Assembly (NCBI GenBank): GCA_964636095.1
Contig: CAZWRF010000002.1
Span: forward strand, 1 to 32,000
Source of the DNA: an uncultured Candidatus Saccharibacteria bacterium
Lineage (GTDB): Bacteria; Patescibacteriota; Minisyncoccia; JAHISW01; Tagabacteraceae
Length of the DNA stretch: 32,000 bases
Direction: 5' to 3'
The translations under genes were made by a program, and so were the position numbers. The notes under the pieces are model-generated. The model made no database searches. It saw nothing but the letters and a program-made list of their open reading frames with translations, and was not told the DNA's origin. This document shows, one piece after another, positions 5,465-14,335 of the stretch; position 1 is the first letter of the stretch, and each line of letters opens with the position of its first letter.

Positions 5465-5494
5465 CCCCGTTTTTGTCAACGGGGATTTTTGTTT
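5465..5494 (+). terminator. Intrinsic terminator after the NlpC/P60 gene
   Basis: Hairpin CCCCG-TTTTTGTCAA-CGGGG followed by ATTTTTGTTT. Confidence 0.7.
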
Positions 5495-5532: not shown

Positions 5533-6486
5533 ATGAAAAAAGCAACATTCCCGAGAATGGGAAAATACACAGAGGCGCTGGAGTTTTTTGCGTCAGAACT
5601 GGGGTTTGAACCAATAGTACCGCCCAAAACAACCCAGGAAACAATAAAACTTGGCGTAAGGCATAGTTCGGACATGGTTTGCTTCCCTTTCAAATCTACC
5701 CTGGGAAATTTGATACAAGGGCTTGAACGAGGAGCAGAGGTTATTATAGCCACGGGCGTAAATCCGTCCGACAAGCTTAGGGAAACTTGTCGGTTTGCCT
5801 TTTATTACCATATTCAAGAACAAATACTGAGGCGAATGGGGTATGATTTTGAAATGGCCTATATGAATGTGTATCTGAACGGAGGAGGACGGAAGATTTT
5901 GAATATTTTAAAAAAGACAAATCCCAAGCTTACATATTTTGATATAGCAAAAGCGGTAAAGAGATCTTTTGACAAGGTAAAGGAAATAGAAGAGCGTGAA
6001 TACAAATTTGAGAAGAAGGAAATAAATGTGGGGTTGGTGGGAGAAGTTTATACTCTTTGGGAAGAAGCCATCAACTACAATATTATAGACAAGCTTAGAA
6101 AGATGGGCGTTGGCGTTCATCTCTCGGTGAAGCTTTCCTGGTTTCTTAAAGAACAAATAGGCCGGGCCGATAAAAAAAAGGAGCTCCACGAAGAAGTGAA
6201 AAAATATTTTCCCAAAAAAACGGGAGGCCACGGCTTTGAAACTCTGTGCAACAGTATTTGGTACGCGAAAAACAACTTTGACGGCATCATTCATCTTCTT
6301 CCGTTATCGTGCATGCCGGAAACCTTGGTGGAAATGCCCCTAAACTTTATTTCCGAGGACTACAAAATACCCGTTTACAGATTTTCCATAGACGAAAACA
6401 GGTTTGAGGCGGGGTTTGATACCCGTCTGGAAACATTTATAAAGCTGTTAAAAAGAAATAAAAATGGATTATTGGCTGGGAATTGA
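5533..6486 (+). CDS. Acyl-CoA dehydratase activase-related protein (DUF2229-like)
   Basis: The N-terminal pattern FPRMGKYTEALEFFASELGFEPIVPP...DMVCFPFKSTLGNL resembles the CoA-enzyme-activase-associated DUF2229 domain (recognised from memory). Overlaps the downstream activase gene by 23 nt. Confidence 0.65.
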   Translation: MKKATFPRMGKYTEALEFFASELGFEPIVPPKTTQETIKLGVRHSSDMVCFPFKSTLGNLIQGLERGAEVIIATGVNPSDKLRETCRFAFYYHIQEQILRRMGYDFEMAYMNVYLNGGGRKILNILKKTNPKLTYFDIAKAVKRSFDKVKEIEEREYKFEKKEINVGLVGEVYTLWEEAINYNIIDKLRKMGVGVHLSVKLSWFLKEQIGRADKKKELHEEVKKYFPKKTGGHGFETLCNSIWYAKNNFDGIIHLLPLSCMPETLVEMPLNFISEDYKIPVYRFSIDENRFEAGFDTRLETFIKLLKRNKNGLLAGN

Positions 6487-7393
6487 TTGCGGAAGCGTAA
6501 GCGTAAAAGGAGTTGTTGTTGACGAGTATAACAATATTGTAAATTCGTATTACACGAGAAATTTTGGACTTGTGGATACCATAAAAGAGGTTATGGGAGG
6601 CCTCTCTTCGGAAAGGAAAATAAAAGGAGTAGGCATAACGGGAAGCGGAAGAAGATTTATTTCACTGCTTGTCGGAGGCGATATCGTGGAAAGCGAAATA
6701 ATAGCCCACTATGTCGCCGCAACGAATTTTTATCCCGAAGTTTCCACCATATTTGATATAGGCGGTGAAGACTGCAAACTGATGATGGTAAACGGCGGCA
6801 ACCTTGTCTCTTTTCAGATGAACCGCGATTGTGGAGGAGGTACGGGAGCTATGATAGAATCCATTGCCAAGCGAATGAACGTATCTTTGGATCAAATAGG
6901 CCCCACGGCCCTGAAAAGCAAAACAAAGGTTGTTGTTCCGAGCAAATGCGGTATTTTTGCCCAGTCGGCGGTTGTAAGCAAGCTGAACAAAGGGGTGCCC
7001 AAAGAGGATATACTTATGGGCGTTTGCAAGGGGCTTGTGGGAAATTATTTTGCCATGCTGGCCAAAGGACAGAGGTTGAAGGGTCCATATGTATTTCAGG
7101 GCGCTACGGCCAAAAACGAAGCATTGGTAAAATGCTTTGAAGAAGAAACGGGTGAAAAAATAATAGTGCCGGAGCACCCCGACCTTATGGGTGCCATAGG
7201 CATAGCCATGCTTGCGAGAGAAGATTTCAAAGGTGAAACCCGGTTCAAGGGCTTTGACAACGTGAACAACGATTTTACAACAGAAACTTACTATGGCACC
7301 GGTTGTTCTAATGAATGTGAGATAACGAAAATATTTAAAAATGGAAAGCTTGTAGGATATGTAGGCAACAGATGCGCGAATTGTCTGAAATAA
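6464..7393 (+). CDS. BadF/BadG/BcrA/BcrD-type ATPase (HgdC-like 2-hydroxyacyl-CoA dehydratase activase family) with a Cys-rich C-terminal extension
   Basis: ASKHA-fold motifs GIDCGSVSVKGVV, GITGSGR and DIGGEDCKLM. Candidate cluster cysteines lie in NRDCGGGTGAMIE and PSKCGIFAQS. C-terminal tail is GTGCSNECEITKIFKNGKLVGYVGNRCANC (CX3C...CX2C). Confidence 0.85.
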   Translation: MDYWLGIDCGSVSVKGVVVDEYNNIVNSYYTRNFGLVDTIKEVMGGLSSERKIKGVGITGSGRRFISLLVGGDIVESEIIAHYVAATNFYPEVSTIFDIGGEDCKLMMVNGGNLVSFQMNRDCGGGTGAMIESIAKRMNVSLDQIGPTALKSKTKVVVPSKCGIFAQSAVVSKLNKGVPKEDILMGVCKGLVGNYFAMLAKGQRLKGPYVFQGATAKNEALVKCFEEETGEKIIVPEHPDLMGAIGIAMLAREDFKGETRFKGFDNVNNDFTTETYYGTGCSNECEITKIFKNGKLVGYVGNRCANCLK

Positions 7394-7405
7394 TATCTGA
7401 TAATG

Positions 7406-7414
7406 TGGTACAAT
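7406..7414 (+). promoter_or_regulatory. Candidate internal extended -10 promoter (TGGTACAAT) 7 nt upstream of the DUF192 ATG
   Basis: TGGTACAAT at 7406-7414, ATG at 7422, no SD in between. Confidence 0.35.
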
Positions 7415-7421
7415 ATGGATA

Positions 7422-7892
7422 ATGAAAAGATTATTTTTAAGTTCGGCTGTTTTTTCGGTGATTCTTTTGGTTTTTTTGGCTATGTGGTTTTTATTGCGGA
7501 AAAACCAGCCGGAAAATCCGCTCTTGCCTCAGGTTTGCTTCAATACACGCTGTTTTTCCGTAGAGATTGCCTCTACTTCATTTGAACGCGAATTAGGCCT
7601 AATGTTCAGAAACGAACTGCCCATTGACAGAGGCATGCTTTTTACCTTCAAGGGCGAAGGCATTCATTCTTTCTGGATGAAAAATACCTATATTTCTCTT
7701 GATATGATATGGCTAAATAAAGACAAGGAGGTTGTTTATATTGAAAAAAACGCTCTCCCTTGCGAGGATGAATGCTCCGACATTATTCCGGACAAAGCCG
7801 CCCTTTATGTATTGGAGATAAACGGGGGAATGGCCGACCAAATAGGCCTTAAAGTGGGCGACAAAATGGATTTTTACGTAAATCAGGACTAG
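7422..7892 (+). CDS. DUF192 family protein with N-terminal signal/anchor helix
   Basis: N-terminal hydrophobic segment LFLSSAVFSVILLVFLAMWFLL. DUF192-like core ELGLMFR...DRGMLFTF......FWMKNTYISLDMIW. Confidence 0.75.
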   Translation: MKRLFLSSAVFSVILLVFLAMWFLLRKNQPENPLLPQVCFNTRCFSVEIASTSFERELGLMFRNELPIDRGMLFTFKGEGIHSFWMKNTYISLDMIWLNKDKEVVYIEKNALPCEDECSDIIPDKAALYVLEINGGMADQIGLKVGDKMDFYVNQD

Positions 7893-9126: not shown

Positions 9127-9957
9127 ATGAACAATATATATCTTCCCGAACAAGTAAAAGTGGCCGATATAAAACAGCTTTCGCGTGATGTGAAGCTTTT
9201 TCGCCTTAAGAAAAAGATAGGAAAGTTCAAAGCCGGCAGAAATAAGCTTGTTTTTACACCGGCCCAGTTTTTGCTTGTAGGTGTGTGGGGATACGGAGAA
9301 TCTCCGTTTGGCTGCGCTTCTTCGCCTTATGAAAAATCTTTTATTGACGTAGTAGTAAGAAATACCGGAGGCAAGGTCACTTCCGCTCTGCACAACAATG
9401 TTAAGAAAGGCGATGAAATTTCAATAAGAGGCCCTTTCGGCAATGGTTTTCCTCTTGAATTTTTTGAAGGCAAGGACATTGTTATGGCTACCGGGGGGTG
9501 CGGCATACCGCCCATAGCTGCTTTTATAGAATATGTAATAAAAAACAGGGAGAAGTTCGGCGAAGTCTACCTGCTTTACGGCGCGCGTACGCCCGCGGAT
9601 ATTTTAATGAAAGAAGACCTTAAAAGATGGGAAAAAAACATAAAAATAATTCTTACCATCGACAAGCCTCATCCGGAATGGAATGGGTGCGTAGGTTTTG
9701 TCACCGACATGGTGGATCAGATAAAAATAGACTCAAGAAGGGCCGTGGCTACCATGTGCGGACCCGGGCCGATGACGAACGCCCTGGAAAAAGTTTTGCG
9801 TCCGCTGGGTATTTCGGACAGAAGGATATTTGTTTCGGCAGAAAGAAAAATGCAGTGCGGAGTGGGAAGGTGCCAGCACTGTACCACGGGCGACAAATAC
9901 GTTTGCATGGACGGCCCTGTGTTTAATTTTGACGAAATAGATAAAAATTGGGATTAA
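9127..9957 (+). CDS. hydG: Group 3b hydrogenase gamma subunit (FAD/NAD(P)-binding oxidoreductase with C-terminal [2Fe-2S] motif)
   Basis: FNR-like fold motifs (GPFGNGF, ATGGCGIPP) and C-terminal CGVGRCQHCTTGDKYVCMDGPVF. Confidence 0.85.
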   Translation: MNNIYLPEQVKVADIKQLSRDVKLFRLKKKIGKFKAGRNKLVFTPAQFLLVGVWGYGESPFGCASSPYEKSFIDVVVRNTGGKVTSALHNNVKKGDEISIRGPFGNGFPLEFFEGKDIVMATGGCGIPPIAAFIEYVIKNREKFGEVYLLYGARTPADILMKEDLKRWEKNIKIILTIDKPHPEWNGCVGFVTDMVDQIKIDSRRAVATMCGPGPMTNALEKVLRPLGISDRRIFVSAERKMQCGVGRCQHCTTGDKYVCMDGPVFNFDEIDKNWD

Positions 9958-9958
9958 C

Positions 9959-10729
9959 ATGACAAAAAAAGAACTGCCAAAAGTAGCAATTTATGATTTT
10001 ACAGACTGTGAGGGGTGCGAAGTGAAGCTTGTTTCCCTTCGTGACAAGCTTCTTCCTCTTTTGAATCTTGTTGATATTGCCGACTGGCGCCTTGGGCAAG
10101 AAAGAAAAGACAAGGGGCCTTTTCTTGTTTCAATTATTGAAGGGACGCCCATTACTCAGCACGAGATAGACACGCTGAAACATCTTAGGGAAAATTCTAC
10201 TTACATTGTAGCTTTAGGCGCTTGCGCCTCTTTGGCCGGTATTCCCGGAATTATGAATAAAAAAGACAGAGAAAAGTGGCGAAAGAAAATTTATGGAAAA
10301 AACTACAAGGGAAAGGATATTGACGCTCTTCCCCTTCAGGCCTATGTAAAAGTGGATTTTTTCATTCACGGCTGTCCGGTGGATGAAGGCCAGCTTGAAA
10401 GAGTTTTGGAAGAGCTTCTTTCCGGAAAAACTCCTTCCTACAGGGGATATTCCGTTTGCTTTGAATGCAAGTTGGCGGGAAACAAATGCCGAATTGTAAA
10501 CGGTAAGCCGTGCCTGGGGCCCATAACTCAGGGCGGGTGCGGAGCTATCTGTGTTTCCGGCGGTTCACCCTGTTACGGCTGTTTTGGCCTGAGGGAAGAT
10601 GCCAATGTTGAAGGGCTTGTTAAAAGGCTGAAGAAAATCACCAATAAAAAGGAAATTGAAAGATACTTCACCATGTTCCACAATCAAATGCCCGAGTGGA
10701 AAGATAGGGTTAAAAAACTTCTCAAATAG
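9959..10729 (+). CDS. hydD: Group 3b [NiFe]-hydrogenase small (delta) subunit
   Basis: N-terminal DCEGCEV proximal-cluster motif, GACA, HGCP and a C-terminal Cys-rich region (CFECK...C...CLGPITQGGCGAICVSGGSPCYGCFG). 1-nt gap from hydG. Confidence 0.85.
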   Translation: MTKKELPKVAIYDFTDCEGCEVKLVSLRDKLLPLLNLVDIADWRLGQERKDKGPFLVSIIEGTPITQHEIDTLKHLRENSTYIVALGACASLAGIPGIMNKKDREKWRKKIYGKNYKGKDIDALPLQAYVKVDFFIHGCPVDEGQLERVLEELLSGKTPSYRGYSVCFECKLAGNKCRIVNGKPCLGPITQGGCGAICVSGGSPCYGCFGLREDANVEGLVKRLKKITNKKEIERYFTMFHNQMPEWKDRVKKLLK

Positions 10730-10746
10730 TTCAACAAACTTACTGT

Positions 10747-10786
10747 AAATAAAAAATGCCGGCCTGGTCCACGACCAAACCGGCAT
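10747..10786 (-). terminator. Strong intrinsic terminator, functional orientation on the minus strand
   Basis: Minus-strand hairpin ATGCCGG-TT-TGGTC-GTG-GACCA-GG-CCGGCAT followed by TTTTTTATTT. On the plus strand no T-run follows. Confidence 0.75.
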
Positions 10787-11030
10787 GTTGAAGGGCTCTG
10801 CTTCCCCTCTCTTCTTGGCTCCAGTGTGTGGCTTTTTATTTTTGTGGGTGCCTTCCCTTTGTGAGGTACACAAGACCGGACAAGTTGATTTAACAATCAA
10901 CGGATACACCTTCCCACGCTTTCGGGCTCGCCAGCTTTTGATTCGAATGTGTTTTAAAGTAGCGTCATAGCATGGCTTTTCTCTGGCTCCTTTGGTTTTT
11001 TGTTTTTGTCAAAAGGCCGTTTTTGACCTT
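10748..11030 (-). ncRNA. Candidate unclassified non-coding RNA (about 280 nt) in the hydD-hydA spacer
   Basis: Bounded by a near-consensus promoter (11038-11066) and the terminator at 10747-10786. No credible ORF. Local perfect hairpins at 11008-11027 and 10884-10901. GC-richer than the flanks by eye. Confidence 0.5.
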
Positions 11031-11037
11031 AGTTTGC

Positions 11038-11066
11038 ATTCTATATCAAAAAATGTTTCTTGTCAA
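11038..11066 (-). promoter_or_regulatory. Near-consensus sigma70-type promoter driving the candidate ncRNA
   Basis: Minus strand reads TTGACA (11066-11061), exactly 17 nt, TAGAAT (11043-11038). Confidence 0.6.
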
Positions 11067-11097
11067 TAGATAGTAATTTTTAAATTTTTTGGAATTT

Positions 11098-11106
11098 TGG
11101 TAGAAT
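11098..11106 (+). promoter_or_regulatory. Candidate extended -10 promoter for hydA (TGGTAGAAT)
   Basis: TGGTAGAAT lies 15 nt upstream of the hydA ATG, back-to-back with the minus-strand promoter. Confidence 0.4.
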
Positions 11107-11121
11107 AGAGATACATAAAAA

Positions 11122-12327
11122 ATGGCAAATATTACCGACAAATACATTACAAAGATTGAAGGGCATGGGAGCCTGGATGTTGATTGGGGAAAAAATAAAG
11201 TAAAGCTCAATATTCACGAAGGAGAACGCCTTTTTGAAGGGCTTCTCGTGGGCAGAAGCATAGGAGAAGCCTACTGGATTACTCCGAGGATTTGCGGGGT
11301 GTGCCCTATTGCCCACAACCTGGCTTCCGTCCGGGCTTGCGAGGACGGTTACGAGGTAAAAGTAAGTCCGAAAACTGAGCTTTTGCGCCAGCTTATGGAT
11401 TGCGGGCAAATGATACAAAGCCACGTTTTGCACATGGCATTTCTTGCGCTTCCCGACTATTTGGGAATTGACCGAGCTACCGAACTGGCAAAAAAGAATC
11501 CGAAAGTTTTTAAAGTAGTTTTGGATCTCAAAGAAGTTTCCGATGATATTGCTTATGTTGTGGCCGGGAGGAACGTTCACCCTACTACTATCACAATCGG
11601 AGGTTTTCACAAAATTCCCGAAAGAAAAGAGCTTGAAAACTTGCTTAAAAAAATAAAGAATACAAAAAAGGCGGCGAAGATCTTTATGAAGCTTTGCATT
11701 GGTGTAAAATACCCCGCCCTTAAGGCCGATTTTGAGCTTGTAGCTCAGAACGGGAAAAATATTTTATCGAGCAAAGACAAAAAAGTTTCCATAAAAGATT
11801 ACAAAAAAACCATTACGGAAGAAATTAAGACCTACTCAACGGCCAAGTTCGGCACCTACAAGCACCGCGAGATGATGGTGGGCGCTCTTGCCAGAATGTA
11901 TTTTGAGCTCAAAGACAAAAAAATGCGCTCTCTTCTGGATTTTGAAAATCCCTTCTACAACAACATGGCCCAGGGAATAGAAATATATCTTTACCACAAG
12001 AAGGCGGAGGAAATTCTTGAAAAGTTTTTGGGCGGCAATTTGAGCTTTCCCGTTGCCGAACCGAAGAAAAAGAAAGGGCCATACGAAGGAATAGGGGCAC
12101 ACGAAGCTCCCAGGGGAGGGCTTTACCACGAGTATCATTTCAACAGCAAGGGAGATATTACCTACGCTAATATTATTACCCCTACCGTTCAAAACCTCAC
12201 CTCAATAGAAAACTGCGCCAACAGGCTGATGAAGCAGTACGGGGACAAATCCCAAAAAGAAAAAGAGCACCTCATGGAGATGCTCGTCCGGGCCTACGAT
12301 CCGTGCATTACTTGTTCGGTTCACTAA
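11122..12327 (+). CDS. hydA: Group 3b [NiFe]-hydrogenase large (alpha) subunit, ending exactly at the C-terminal His
   Basis: N-terminal Ni-Fe ligand motif RICGVCPIAH and C-terminal DPCITCSVH followed directly by TAA. Confidence 0.9.
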   Translation: MANITDKYITKIEGHGSLDVDWGKNKVKLNIHEGERLFEGLLVGRSIGEAYWITPRICGVCPIAHNLASVRACEDGYEVKVSPKTELLRQLMDCGQMIQSHVLHMAFLALPDYLGIDRATELAKKNPKVFKVVLDLKEVSDDIAYVVAGRNVHPTTITIGGFHKIPERKELENLLKKIKNTKKAAKIFMKLCIGVKYPALKADFELVAQNGKNILSSKDKKVSIKDYKKTITEEIKTYSTAKFGTYKHREMMVGALARMYFELKDKKMRSLLDFENPFYNNMAQGIEIYLYHKKAEEILEKFLGGNLSFPVAEPKKKKGPYEGIGAHEAPRGGLYHEYHFNSKGDITYANIITPTVQNLTSIENCANRLMKQYGDKSQKEKEHLMEMLVRAYDPCITCSVH

Positions 12328-12364
12328 TTTTTTCCAACAAAATCATCTTTTTGTCTCCGGGCAA

Positions 12365-12392
12365 GGGGAAGTCCTTACATCCCCTCTATTTT
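12365..12392 (+). terminator. Weak candidate terminator after hydA
   Basis: GGGGA-10 nt-TCCCC followed by TCTATTTT. A second imperfect long hairpin follows at about 12385-12423. Confidence 0.3.
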
Positions 12393-12456
12393 AAATGGGC
12401 TCGCTAAGCTCGCCCAAAATAGTCTCCCTTTGGAGTCGTCAAAAAGTCGATTTTGT

Positions 12457-13200
12457 TTACAAAGTTACGTTAGTCAAATCCAGATGGAACTTGGTCCAAA
12501 AGGCCAGGTTGTTTTTTTGTCTTTCGGTTATTTTGTCGCAAACATAATCCCAGTGGAGGGACACATTGTCTCCCATTTTTATTGAAGGGTCAAGCAGAAA
12601 ATACCCTCTAGTTTCTTTTTTTCCGAATTGCAGTTTTTTGTTTTTGAATTCAATTGGCGTATACTCTACCAAAGCTATACCCGAGCCAGGATTTTTCTGC
12701 CCACTAATAAAATCGGTGGTTAACACCCGGCCTCCCTTTATACTGCAGTTGTTTATTGTTTCAATGAGCTTGTCTTTTGCTCCCGATCTTAAAAATCCGG
12801 TCCGCCTGTAAATATCCAGGGCGTGAAATGCGTGAAAAGGCTTTGCTTTCGGCACCGAACCCGATATAAGCCAAGACCAATCTTTTTTTTTCATTCTGTC
12901 TTTGAATCTGTTTTCCAGATGACTGTAAAAATCTTTCATCTCAACTTTTTCAAGAAGCTCGTTTCCGAGCCAGTAAGCTTCAACCACTCTGTAGTCAAAA
13001 ATATCTTTTATCCCGCTGCTAAAGGCTATAAGCCGAAGGTAAGGAACCGCTCCTTCAAATTGAAGAAGCAGATTTTTCAGCTCAACGGATTTTTCCTTTT
13101 CGCTTAACGCACCAAACAATGCGGCATTATCTTCAGGCCCGCAATATTTGAGCAAATTTGGCGGAAAGGCGTATTTTGCGCAGGTTAAGAGCCCGTCCAT
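12457..13200 (-). CDS. Conserved-looking hypothetical protein (247 aa), last gene of the hypC-eamA operon
   Basis: Long ORF with non-repetitive composition. N-terminal CAKYAFPPNLLKYCGPE motif. Its start overlaps the eamA stop by 16 nt. No family confidently recognised. Confidence 0.6.
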   Translation of the reverse strand: MDGLLTCAKYAFPPNLLKYCGPEDNAALFGALSEKEKSVELKNLLLQFEGAVPYLRLIAFSSGIKDIFDYRVVEAYWLGNELLEKVEMKDFYSHLENRFKDRMKKKDWSWLISGSVPKAKPFHAFHALDIYRRTGFLRSGAKDKLIETINNCSIKGGRVLTTDFISGQKNPGSGIALVEYTPIEFKNKKLQFGKKETRGYFLLDPSIKMGDNVSLHWDYVCDKITERQKNNLAFWTKFHLDLTNVTL

Positions 13201-14114
13201 AATAATCCCCCCGTTTTTTTGAATGAATTTGCAATTTTTGCTGACTTAACAAACAATACTATACCGACAGCTATCAGTGCAACAGGAAGCACCAGCGCTT
13301 TGTTGAAAGTGTGGCTGACAAAAACAGAATTCAAAACTGCGGTAATAGGCGCGGCTATTACAAGTATGGAGCTTACAATTGTAGCAGGAGCTAGTTTTAG
13401 CGCTTTATACCAGGTAATTACATATCCGAACAGCATTAGACTGCCGAAAATAAGCCAGCTTATTTTCGCCGTGGAAAAATATAAAAGTTCTCCAATTCCG
13501 CCGGTGACGCAGATAAAAACAAGCAAAAACAAAGAGCCAAAAAACATTCTTCCACATGCTACCGTAATTGGAGAGACGGTTTTTAAAACAACTTTTGCGA
13601 TTATACTTTCAATTGCCCAAAGGAAGGTTGCCAAAAAAACCAGCATTTCTCCATAGCCGAATCTAATCTCGTTTGGGGCCGAAAACAAATATACGCCGGC
13701 AAAAAGAATTGCTAATCCAAAAAATTGGACCCATGATATTTTTTCCTTTAAAACGGGAACAGCCAGTAAAGCTATCCAAACAAAAAGGGTCTTGTGGATA
13801 AAAGCTGCGCCGGATGACGATGACAAGGAAAGGCCCTTGAAAAACAAAAGAAAAGGAATGGATCCGCCCACAAGTCCTATGGATACTAGCATAAGCAATT
13901 GTTTTTTTGAAAGTTTCTTCAGTTCTTTATGCTTTTTTAAAATTGCCATAATGGACAAAAAAAGAATTGCCACAGACAAGTTTTTTGCCGTAGTGAAAAT
14001 AGAAGAATCCGACCAAAAAGACAAAGCGAATTTATTGAAAAACACGGAGAACCCGCTTATGAAGGCTGTCGCAAGGGCCAAATATATACCTTTGTTTTTT
14101 AGTGAGTTGTGCAT
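13185..14114 (-). CDS. EamA/DMT-superfamily transporter (10 TM)
   Basis: Two repeated 5-TM halves typical of EamA domains. Its start overlaps the hypC stop by 16 nt. Confidence 0.8.
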   Translation of the reverse strand: MHNSLKNKGIYLALATAFISGFSVFFNKFALSFWSDSSIFTTAKNLSVAILFLSIMAILKKHKELKKLSKKQLLMLVSIGLVGGSIPFLLFFKGLSLSSSSGAAFIHKTLFVWIALLAVPVLKEKISWVQFFGLAILFAGVYLFSAPNEIRFGYGEMLVFLATFLWAIESIIAKVVLKTVSPITVACGRMFFGSLFLLVFICVTGGIGELLYFSTAKISWLIFGSLMLFGYVITWYKALKLAPATIVSSILVIAAPITAVLNSVFVSHTFNKALVLPVALIAVGIVLFVKSAKIANSFKKTGGLLWTGS

Positions 14115-14335
14115 GTTTCTGAATTGTGATTTATATTTTTAATCATTTTTAATATTTTTTTGGCTTCTTCTTTTTCAATTTTATTAAGTGCCAAGTCAGC
14201 ATGAACCAAAATGTAGTCTCCTATCTTGGCGTTTTTAATTAGCGATAAGTTTGCTTTATGTGTGTGGTCGCCCGATTGAACAATGGCCCAATCTTTCTCT
14301 ATTTTTATTATTTTGCTTGGTGTAGCTAAGCACAT
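14099..14335 (-). CDS. hypC: Hydrogenase maturation chaperone HypC/HybG/HupF family
   Basis: Diagnostic N-terminus MCLATPSKII and GDYILVHADLALNKIEKEEA core. 78 aa. Confidence 0.85.
   Translation of the reverse strand: MCLATPSKIIKIEKDWAIVQSGDHTHKANLSLIKNAKIGDYILVHADLALNKIEKEEAKKILKMIKNINHNSETCTTH

Follow-up and report, generated by a model that had tools for sequence, protein, structure and literature searches.

In the first 32,000 nucleotides of contig CAZWRF010000002.1, from an uncultured Candidatus Saccharibacteria bacterium (this whole stretch is hereafter the window), two overlapping genes, which we call D and A, are reasonably likely to encode a complete and autonomous two-component ATP-dependent iron-sulfur (Fe-S) reductase, one that represents the DUF2229 (PlsA/PlsR/Ger) branch in a minimal form with split genes. 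That they act by a two-component reductase mechanism is, from the homology of both components, highly probable. The genes are as follows:

5533-6486, plus strand: gene D, a predicted DUF2229-type acceptor/catalytic subunit of 317 amino acids (aa), a compact protein with the fold of the 2-hydroxyacyl-coenzyme A (CoA) dehydratases (HAD), benzoyl-CoA reductases (BCR), and DCCP (Pfam, AlphaFold2 [AF2], Foldseek)
6464-7393, plus strand: gene A, a predicted archerase-type ATPase of 309 aa (BcrAD_BadFG/acyl-CoA dehydratase activase) with a C-terminal extension

The two open reading frames (ORFs) lie on the same strand and overlap by 23 nucleotides (nt); both genes, their overlap, the spacings downstream, the ATPase motifs, and two candidate cluster cysteines are all as first described in the initial annotation of the region. 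For D, the ATG at 5533 is preferred over the public gene call (P0001, 309 aa), which begins at Met9 (5557), because F6, P7, and G10, which are conserved, precede Met9 or closely flank it.

The initial assignment of A as an archerase-type (HgdC/HadI/BcrAD) ATP-dependent electron donor is a prediction that Pfam, TIGR00241, PDB, and fold matches all uphold. The protein scores 137 bits against BcrAD_BadFG (PF01869; cutoff, 31.5; E = 1e-39) and 166 bits against the acyl-CoA dehydratase activase model TIGR00241 (cutoff, 125), and phmmer searches of the PDB recover HadI (1e-34) together with MbdQ, HgdC, and DCCP-R. The AF2 model of A has a predicted local distance difference test score (pLDDT) of 92.2 and matches MbdQ, HadI, HgdC, and DCCP-R in Foldseek (E = 3e-27 to 7e-18) over about 260 columns, with a root mean square deviation of 1.7 to 2.8 Å and target-normalized template modeling (TM) scores of 0.86 to 0.91, indicating the ASKHA fold. 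Moreover, two cysteines, C123 and C162, align without gaps (HMMER, 1HUX) with C127 and C166 of HgdC, which we take to be the ligands of its bridging cluster. We compared the pair across 88 related loci (80 from species-representative genomes, one from a plasmid, and seven from contigs, a few duplicates included), and both cysteines are invariant in the 63 partner ATPases from these loci, as well as in the 41 database homologs that were aligned. Hence, the two residues had been correctly picked by eye, and no misalignment with the HgdC ligands was found:

6830-6832, plus strand: codon of Cys123, predicted intersubunit [4Fe-4S] ligand, equivalent of HgdC Cys127 (alignment, invariance)
6947-6949, plus strand: codon of Cys162, predicted intersubunit [4Fe-4S] ligand, equivalent of HgdC Cys166 (alignment, invariance)

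The relationship of D to known acceptor subunits required a structure model and a family profile, since searches with the sequence alone were empty: phmmer found no match in the PDB, and NCBIfam returned only noise. D itself scores above the gathering threshold of the Pfam DUF2229 model (50.9 versus 29.4 bits), and its homologs number 236 by a word index and 2692 representative clusters by an exhaustive profile search. In Foldseek, all 15 PDB matches with an E value of ≤0.001 to the AF2 model of D, built on an alignment (mean pLDDT, 89.8), are HadB/C, BzdN/O, MbdN/O, or DCCP chains, with query-normalized TM scores of 0.47 to 0.56. The D-family profile likewise matches HadC (1.4e-7), DCCP (8.6e-6), and BzdN, the aligned part being the C-terminal motif DG-x-IH-x-x-P-x-x-C-x-PE; beyond the C-terminal 60 residues, no significant alignment to HadB/C or DCCP was obtained with profiles A1 and A2 or with the single sequence P0160. 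The last of these, a family member of 371 aa, is matched across its full length by the Pfam HGD-D model (35.6 bits).

Conservation in D was assessed in alignments of 36 and then 60 sequences, the latter reaching down to about 30% identity, and in the larger set only six columns are invariant: C50, P52, C86, G170, P257, and C260. Three of the four cysteines of D (positions 50, 86, 239, and 260) are thus conserved, and the principal motifs are the following:

5680-5682, plus strand: codon of Cys50, in the motif DMVC-FPFK, proposed [4Fe-4S] ligand 1 (invariant in both alignments)
5788-5790, plus strand: codon of Cys86, in the motif TCRF, proposed [4Fe-4S] ligand 2 (invariant; assigned as a ligand on pattern only)
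6040-6054, plus strand: GEVYT motif, with G170 invariant and E171 nearly so
6310-6312, plus strand: codon of Cys260, in the motif LPLSC-MPE, proposed [4Fe-4S] ligand 3 (invariant; profile alignment)

The profile alignment places C260 of D on Cys325 of HadC, Cys374 of DCCP, and Cys327 of BzdN, the last of which is a ligand of an [8Fe-9S] cluster (PMC11971306). C50 and C86 are positioned at the N termini of helices (C50 at that of helix 51-65 in the AF2 model) with a ligand-like spacing, their separation of 36 residues resembling that of Cys95 and Cys128 in BzdO (PMC11971306). A further line of support comes from LAGLIDADG-type inteins, which interrupt D homologs at three sites (loci L065 and L077, at about 10750-11840, are among the carriers). 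They are inserted immediately before Cys50 in P0123 and P0332 and immediately before Cys260 in P0125 and P0132, with the conserved cysteine itself as the +1 residue of the extein, and in P0140 the insertion lies inside the GEIYT motif, before its final T. The three sites coincide with the three most conserved motifs of D and so independently support the importance of these positions.

Taking together the fold matches, the profile alignment, the three invariant cysteines, and the placement of C260 on a known ligand, we predict that D is a compact homolog of the catalytic/acceptor subunits of the archerase-dependent family and that it probably holds a three-cysteine [4Fe-4S] cluster with one open iron. 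The earlier description of A as an orphan activase without a catalytic subunit nearby is therefore correct only as regards a canonical subunit: profile searches found no full-length HGD-D, HgdAB, or BcrBC gene elsewhere in the window, but A is no orphan, having in D a partner with the acceptor fold and three invariant cysteines.

The C-terminal extension of A provides a second link to the DUF2229 branch:

7235-7390, plus strand: C-terminal mini-domain of A, residues about 258 to 309, with three modeled beta-strands (AF2 model, invariance)

The strands are modeled at residues 271-277, 286-292, and 295-301, and the pLDDT is 82 to 93 over residues 261 to 300. The initial annotation had read this tail as CX3C-X19-CX2C, a possible additional metal site, and had listed it as unusual. 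The tail is real, but the four-cysteine oddity gives way to a family-wide element with three invariant cysteines: C281, N283, C285, E286, and C304 are retained in every one of the 63 partner ATPases and 41 aligned database homologs, while C307 is variable (Cys in 21 and Trp in 35 of the 63). Foldseek found no counterpart of the tail in solved archerases, which match only the first 260 or so residues of A. The corresponding motif, CxNxCE-x17-YG[GS]RC, is also present in 35 large fused proteins, where it is placed after the tail-bearing (last) ATPase domain and ahead of the first D domain. Some of these proteins carry a single ATPase domain; others carry two, and the latter have a Ger-like "BBD" core and no tail on the first ATPase domain. 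A is 32 to 37% identical over its full length to the tail-bearing ATPase domain of the fusions. This cysteine-rich junction element is our own observation on proteins of PlsA/Ger architecture and not a published criterion. Given its universal presence in the partner ATPases and the recurrence of the same motif at the junction of the fused proteins, the tail is, by its sequence, characteristic of the DUF2229-associated ATPases and probably serves as a metal-stabilized docking or tether element.

The association of D with A is itself strongly conserved. A homolog of A is found in 74 of the 88 loci, adjoining D in 72 and separated from it by one small ORF in two, and all loci with at least 35% identity to D carry A, save where the contig ends at D. 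Further, natural D-A fusions are seen in P0121 (625 aa) and P0127 (606 aa). From this adjacency in most loci and from the fusions, gene order indicates that D and A work together as a conserved and sometimes fused unit. The only interruption seen is a 136-aa ORF with no Pfam match between D and A (L084, 10356-10766; L085, 10924-11334).

The D family ranges over bacteria of the candidate phyla radiation (CPR), DPANN archaea, Planctomycetota, Acidobacteriota, Chloroflexota, and Clostridia. In Bacillota (L035-L080 and L081, from Clostridia and others), we observed a three-gene form in which D (about 320 aa) is followed by a second, longer version, D' (about 370 aa), and then by A. This D-D'-A form is sometimes duplicated (L063, L066, L067, L070, and L074); some Bacillota have D-D' with no adjacent A, and fused D-D' proteins of about 750 aa also occur (P0145, P0155, and P0161). 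In a Monoglobus triad recovered by the plasmid search, the names given by PGAP are "activase-related protein," "2-hydroxyacyl-CoA dehydratase," and "activase."

The pair, which is widespread among anaerobes, appears to be horizontally mobile. Its immediate neighbors vary by lineage and include an IS200 transposase, a LAGLIDADG homing endonuclease, ribosomal protein S13, AsnA, dNK, and GH92, among others; a conserved operon partner was considered and rejected, since the immediate neighbors in 20 loci are heterogeneous. The closest relatives, at 58 to 67% identity (L082 [P0014], L083 [P0015], L084/L085 [P0031], and L087 [the same as L001; P0005]), are embedded in extended series of very small ORFs that share one strand and match nothing in Pfam or the PHROGs. 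Near them are a resolvase, a transposase, an IS605 OrfB, and a large helicase, so that the surroundings look like a mobile element or virus; among the neighboring large ORFs at these loci, only the transposase and the helicase were identified. We do not claim a viral origin, as IMG/VR contains no relative of D or A and the PHROGs have no family for either.

Based on these observations, we propose the following mechanism. A would dimerize, as in HgdC, HadI, and DCCP-R, with Cys123 and Cys162 from both monomers supplying the ligands of a shared [4Fe-4S] cluster, and a ferredoxin or flavodoxin would reduce the cluster of this dimer. ATP binding and hydrolysis would then drive the docking of A on D and the transfer of an electron of very low potential to a [4Fe-4S] cluster of D, which C50, C86, and C260 would bind so as to leave one iron open for the substrate. 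At that open iron, reduced D would act on a carbonyl-type substrate. D is presumably a homodimer like DCCP, because only one D gene is present and the fused relatives have two different acceptor halves. The three-cysteine mini-domain of A would correspond to the element that joins the second ATPase to the first acceptor domain in the fusions of PlsA/Ger architecture, with a putative role in docking.

As to the substrate, our leading guess, which we hold only tentatively and by analogy, is a membrane glycerolipid, whose ester carbonyl would be reduced toward an alkenyl or alkyl ether in the manner of PlsA/PlsR and Ger. Expressed in Escherichia coli, these enzymes turn the sn-1 ester into an ether (PMC13159169, PMC8788747, and PMC12838417), and the statement in the initial annotation that no function is established for DUF2229-activase modules is thus out of date for the family (PMC13159169, PMC8788747, and PMC12838417). 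PlsA/PlsR and Ger are the characterized DUF2229 enzymes, and the minimal split form is not among them; that the only characterized members are lipid ester reductases is one reason to favor such a substrate. A second is the context of the pair in six planctomycete loci (L025, L026, L029, L030, L034, and L054), where it sits among lipid-related genes. These loci share a conserved cluster in the order sigma54 activator, B12-binding radical S-adenosylmethionine (SAM) protein, D, A, TPR protein, alpha/beta hydrolase, an unknown gene, and an MFS-acyltransferase-AMP-binding protein, the last resembling LplT/Aas of lysophospholipid recycling. The gene for the B12-binding radical SAM protein is also found near D or D-A in an archaeal (L001) and a bacterial (L004) locus. 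A third reason is provided by two loci with genes suggestive of acyl-chain modification (L086 [the same as L008], 9613-14277, and L088, 5590-13218; 61% identical). In both, a SAM-dependent methyltransferase gene overlaps the end of A, and a few kilobases downstream lies a pair encoding a CMAS-family methyltransferase and a FAD_binding_4 oxidoreductase, which suggests modification of acyl chains. L086 additionally has a flavodoxin gene 4 kb upstream.

Ger-like matches have been reported in Woesearchaeia and Pacearchaeota (PMC13159169 and PMC11868695), and for those of Woesearchaeia a modification of host-derived lipids has been proposed (PMC11868695). Woesearchaeota and Pacearchaeota are also among the carriers of the D-A pair. 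It is conceivable, if rather doubtful, that the pair is a mobile minimal ester-to-ether enzyme with which genome-reduced CPR and DPANN episymbionts, and possibly mobile elements or viruses, remodel membrane lipids that they cannot make. If so, two small proteins of about 630 residues in total would suffice for a chemistry otherwise known only from enzymes of the PlsA/PlsR and Ger type, with their two ATPase and two acceptor domains.

Several points weigh against the interpretation of D and A as an independent reductase of the DUF2229 branch or against its extension to lipids. The match of D to the Pfam HGD-D model is below the gathering score (17.9 versus 28.4 bits) and covers only the C-terminal 60 residues, and C50 and C86 are equated with known ligands on spacing, fold, and invariance only. 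With either acceptor domain of the fusions, D shares only 18 to 25% identity, so that function may not carry over, and the fused proteins compared were uncharacterized ones of PlsA/Ger architecture rather than the characterized PlsA, PlsR, and Ger. Lipid-related neighbors are limited to two or three lineages, most loci having unrelated ones. Finally, a consensus scan found no terminator between A and the DUF192 gene that follows it, so that read-through or cotranscription with the genes downstream is possible.

An alternative that we consider unlikely, though the best of those weighed, is that D and A make up a minimal radical enzyme for CoA esters, of the 2-hydroxyacyl-CoA dehydratase or acyl-CoA reductase type, acting on a soluble thioester rather than a lipid. 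The best matches of D among solved structures are indeed HadC/HadB and BzdN/O, its three cysteines and open iron would reproduce the arrangement in HadB and BzdO (PMC7317905 and PMC11971306), and NCBI labels a 30%-identical homolog "2-hydroxyacyl-CoA dehydratase." However, D is about 60 to 120 residues shorter than HadB/C or BzdN/O, and in no lineage is a CoA-transferase, 2-hydroxyacid dehydrogenase, or acyl-CoA pathway gene conserved beside the pair. Its presence in DPANN archaea, whose metabolism has been described as restricted (PMC11868695), fits poorly with such a role, and the tail ties A to the DUF2229/PlsA-type fusions, being lacking in HgdC, HadI, and BcrAD.

Quite improbable, in our estimate, is a system like DCCP/DCCP-R, in which a homodimeric acceptor would use an unusual cluster to reduce small molecules that are acetylene-like or unknown. 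The two-gene layout of a single acceptor and a single ATPase is the same, DCCP chains rank high among the fold matches of D, and DCCP-R matches A. Yet the DCCP motif, CX19CX18-19CX29CX166-170CX32-34CX32C, comprises seven cysteines, six of them ligands (PMC7317905), and it is absent from D, which has four cysteines with three conserved; DCCP-R, moreover, has no tail.

The initial annotation had also linked the pair to the hydrogenase genes downstream. The order after A is DUF192, DUF167, hydB, hydG, hydD, spacer, and hydA, with successive gaps of 28, 3, 7, 3, and 1 nt and a spacer of 392 nt before hydA. The best NCBIfam matches of the four hydrogenase genes are the beta, gamma, delta, and alpha subunits of an NAD(P)-dependent sulfhydrogenase, all below the equivalog cutoffs. 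The proposed functional link does not survive the comparison across genomes: with flanks of about 10 kb, none of the 88 loci, including the relatives at 58 to 67% identity, has a homolog of HydA, HydB, HydG, or HydD, and the neighborhood tables of those closest relatives contain no hydrogenase Pfam family. The synteny is thus not conserved, while the pair itself is. DUF192 is near the pair in only one of the 88 loci, and in the literature we found nothing relevant that joins an activase with a hydrogenase, nor anything on the "activase-related protein." Because no hydrogenase occurs in these loci while D and A stay together, we conclude with good confidence that the pair is independent of the hydrogenase and that the group-3b-like enzyme is a genome-specific neighbor and not a partner. 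Two candidate sites, each from a consensus scan only, flank the pair:

7385-7414, plus strand: promoter-like site with a TG extension, CTGAAA-18-TACAAT, in and about the 28-nt gap between A and DUF192 (9/12 match, weak)
5465-5484, plus strand: terminator-like hairpin 3' of the upstream NlpC/P60 gene, a likely 5' boundary of the D-A transcription unit

Judged by its sequence, the former could possibly provide a separate start for the downstream genes. The DUF192 protein (7422-7892), encoded next after the pair, has a hydrophobic, signal- or transmembrane-like N-terminal segment, MKRLFLSSAVFSVILLVFLAMWFLL, which suggests that it is an envelope protein unrelated to the reductase pair or to a cytoplasmic hydrogenase. 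The coupling of the pair to the group-3b hydrogenase, either to boost H2- or NAD(P)H-derived electrons with ATP for an unknown reduction or to (re)activate the hydrogenase or its Fe-S clusters, is a very remote prospect, close to refuted, for the shared strand, the tight gaps, and the junction with no terminator-like site are set against the lack of any hydrogenase subunit within about 10 kb in the related loci, the dedicated, co-conserved, and sometimes fused acceptor that A already has in D, the TG-extended promoter-like site just before DUF192, the apparently unrelated envelope role of the intervening DUF192 protein, and the minus-strand promoter and terminator that interrupt hydD and hydA. 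For annotation, the adjacency to the hydrogenase should accordingly be given no functional weight.

The hydrogenase cluster has two further features of its own. The product of hydA, the end of which is at 12208-12327, stops at ...DPCITCSVH*, with no C-terminal extension past the distal Ni-Fe ligand motif. The hydD-hydA spacer (10730-11121) contains on its minus strand the best sigma70-like promoter of the region (TTGACA-17-TAGAAT, 11066-11038) and, about 250 nt downstream of it, a 14-bp GC-rich hairpin followed by a T-run (10786-10756). RNA folding gives a z score of -2.3 for the minus strand versus -0.5 for the plus strand, and Rfam has no family matching the spacer even at an E value of ≤1. 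From these signals, the spacer may encode an unannotated small RNA of about 280 nt, antisense within the hydrogenase cluster. The remainder of the window is occupied by housekeeping genes, including those for TsaD, a class I tRNA synthetase, NusA, RNase Y, and iPGM, and by type IV pilus genes.

The reactions of archerase-dependent Fe-S enzymes are among the most strongly reducing in biology, and to our knowledge few of their acceptor types have been characterized, namely, HAD, BCR, DCCP, and PlsAR/Ger. The minimal version described here, with one ATPase and one three-cysteine acceptor, belongs to a widespread family (the 2692 representative clusters noted above) and was previously unstudied. 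Its small size would make it a tractable model in which to study how ATP hydrolysis gates electron injection and what the three-cysteine mini-domain does. Should the lipid ester prove to be the substrate, organisms thought to depend on host lipids could make ether lipids, a matter of relevance to the "lipid divide" and to the question of where ether-lipid biomarkers in the environment come from. In annotation, a "DUF2229 + activase" pair is best read as a complete enzyme rather than as an orphan activase.

Among the known systems, the class I benzoyl-CoA reductases (BzdNOPQ and MbdONPQ) share with the proposed reductase the ATP-dependent injection of electrons into N/O-type subunits, and the three-cysteine pattern of D resembles Cys95/128/380 of BzdO (PMC11971306). 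They differ in being four-subunit enzymes with an [8Fe-9S] cluster in BzdN and in their aromatic-degradation gene context, which is absent here. The dehydratase systems HadBC/HadI and HgdAB/HgdC resemble it in the fold of D, which is that of HadB/C, and in the cluster ligands of A, equivalent to C127 and C166 of HgdC; with HadC, D also shares the aligned C-terminal DG-x-I-H...C-x-P-E motif, although it is HadB, not HadC, that binds the CoA substrate (PMC7317905). These dehydratases are heterodimers of two subunits of about 375 to 400 residues, and their ATPases lack the tail. By layout, the closest system is DCCP/DCCP-R of Carboxydothermus hydrogenoformans, with one acceptor and one archerase encoded by two genes and matching folds in both components; the acceptor DCCP is a homodimer, as D would be. 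In contrast to DCCP, D has three conserved cysteines in place of the 6/7-cysteine double-cubane motif and is about 100 residues shorter, and A has the extra three-cysteine mini-domain of about 50 residues that DCCP-R does not.

The proteins of the PlsA/PlsR and Ger type combine, like the pair, a DUF2229-type acceptor with a BcrAD_BadFG ATPase, and, as seen in proteins of the same architecture, the ATPase domain that adjoins the acceptor has the CxNxCE...G-x-[RK]-C element. A further likeness is that they are oxygen-sensitive Fe-S enzymes of anaerobes that are self-sufficient, with no obligate neighbors. Ger of Thermotoga maritima (Tmari_0479) has two PF01869 domains followed by PF09989 and then by PF06050 fragments, with a conserved "BBD" core, and DUF2229 is the "reduction" domain of this experimentally confirmed enzyme (PMC13159169); PlsA/PlsR of Clostridium perfringens (CPE1194/1195) has been modeled with Act1/Act2 and Red1/Red2 domains (PMC13159169, PMC8788747, and PMC12838417). 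The pair departs from this plan in having one ATPase domain instead of two, encoded by a separate gene downstream of D, so that it lacks the BBD core, and in having one 317-aa acceptor in place of two different halves, Red1 and Red2/PlsR. Of the two acceptor domains of the fused proteins, the D-family hidden Markov model matches the second (the PlsR/Red2 position) from end to end and the first only at its termini, and the D-D'-A arrangement of Clostridia is an intermediate form.

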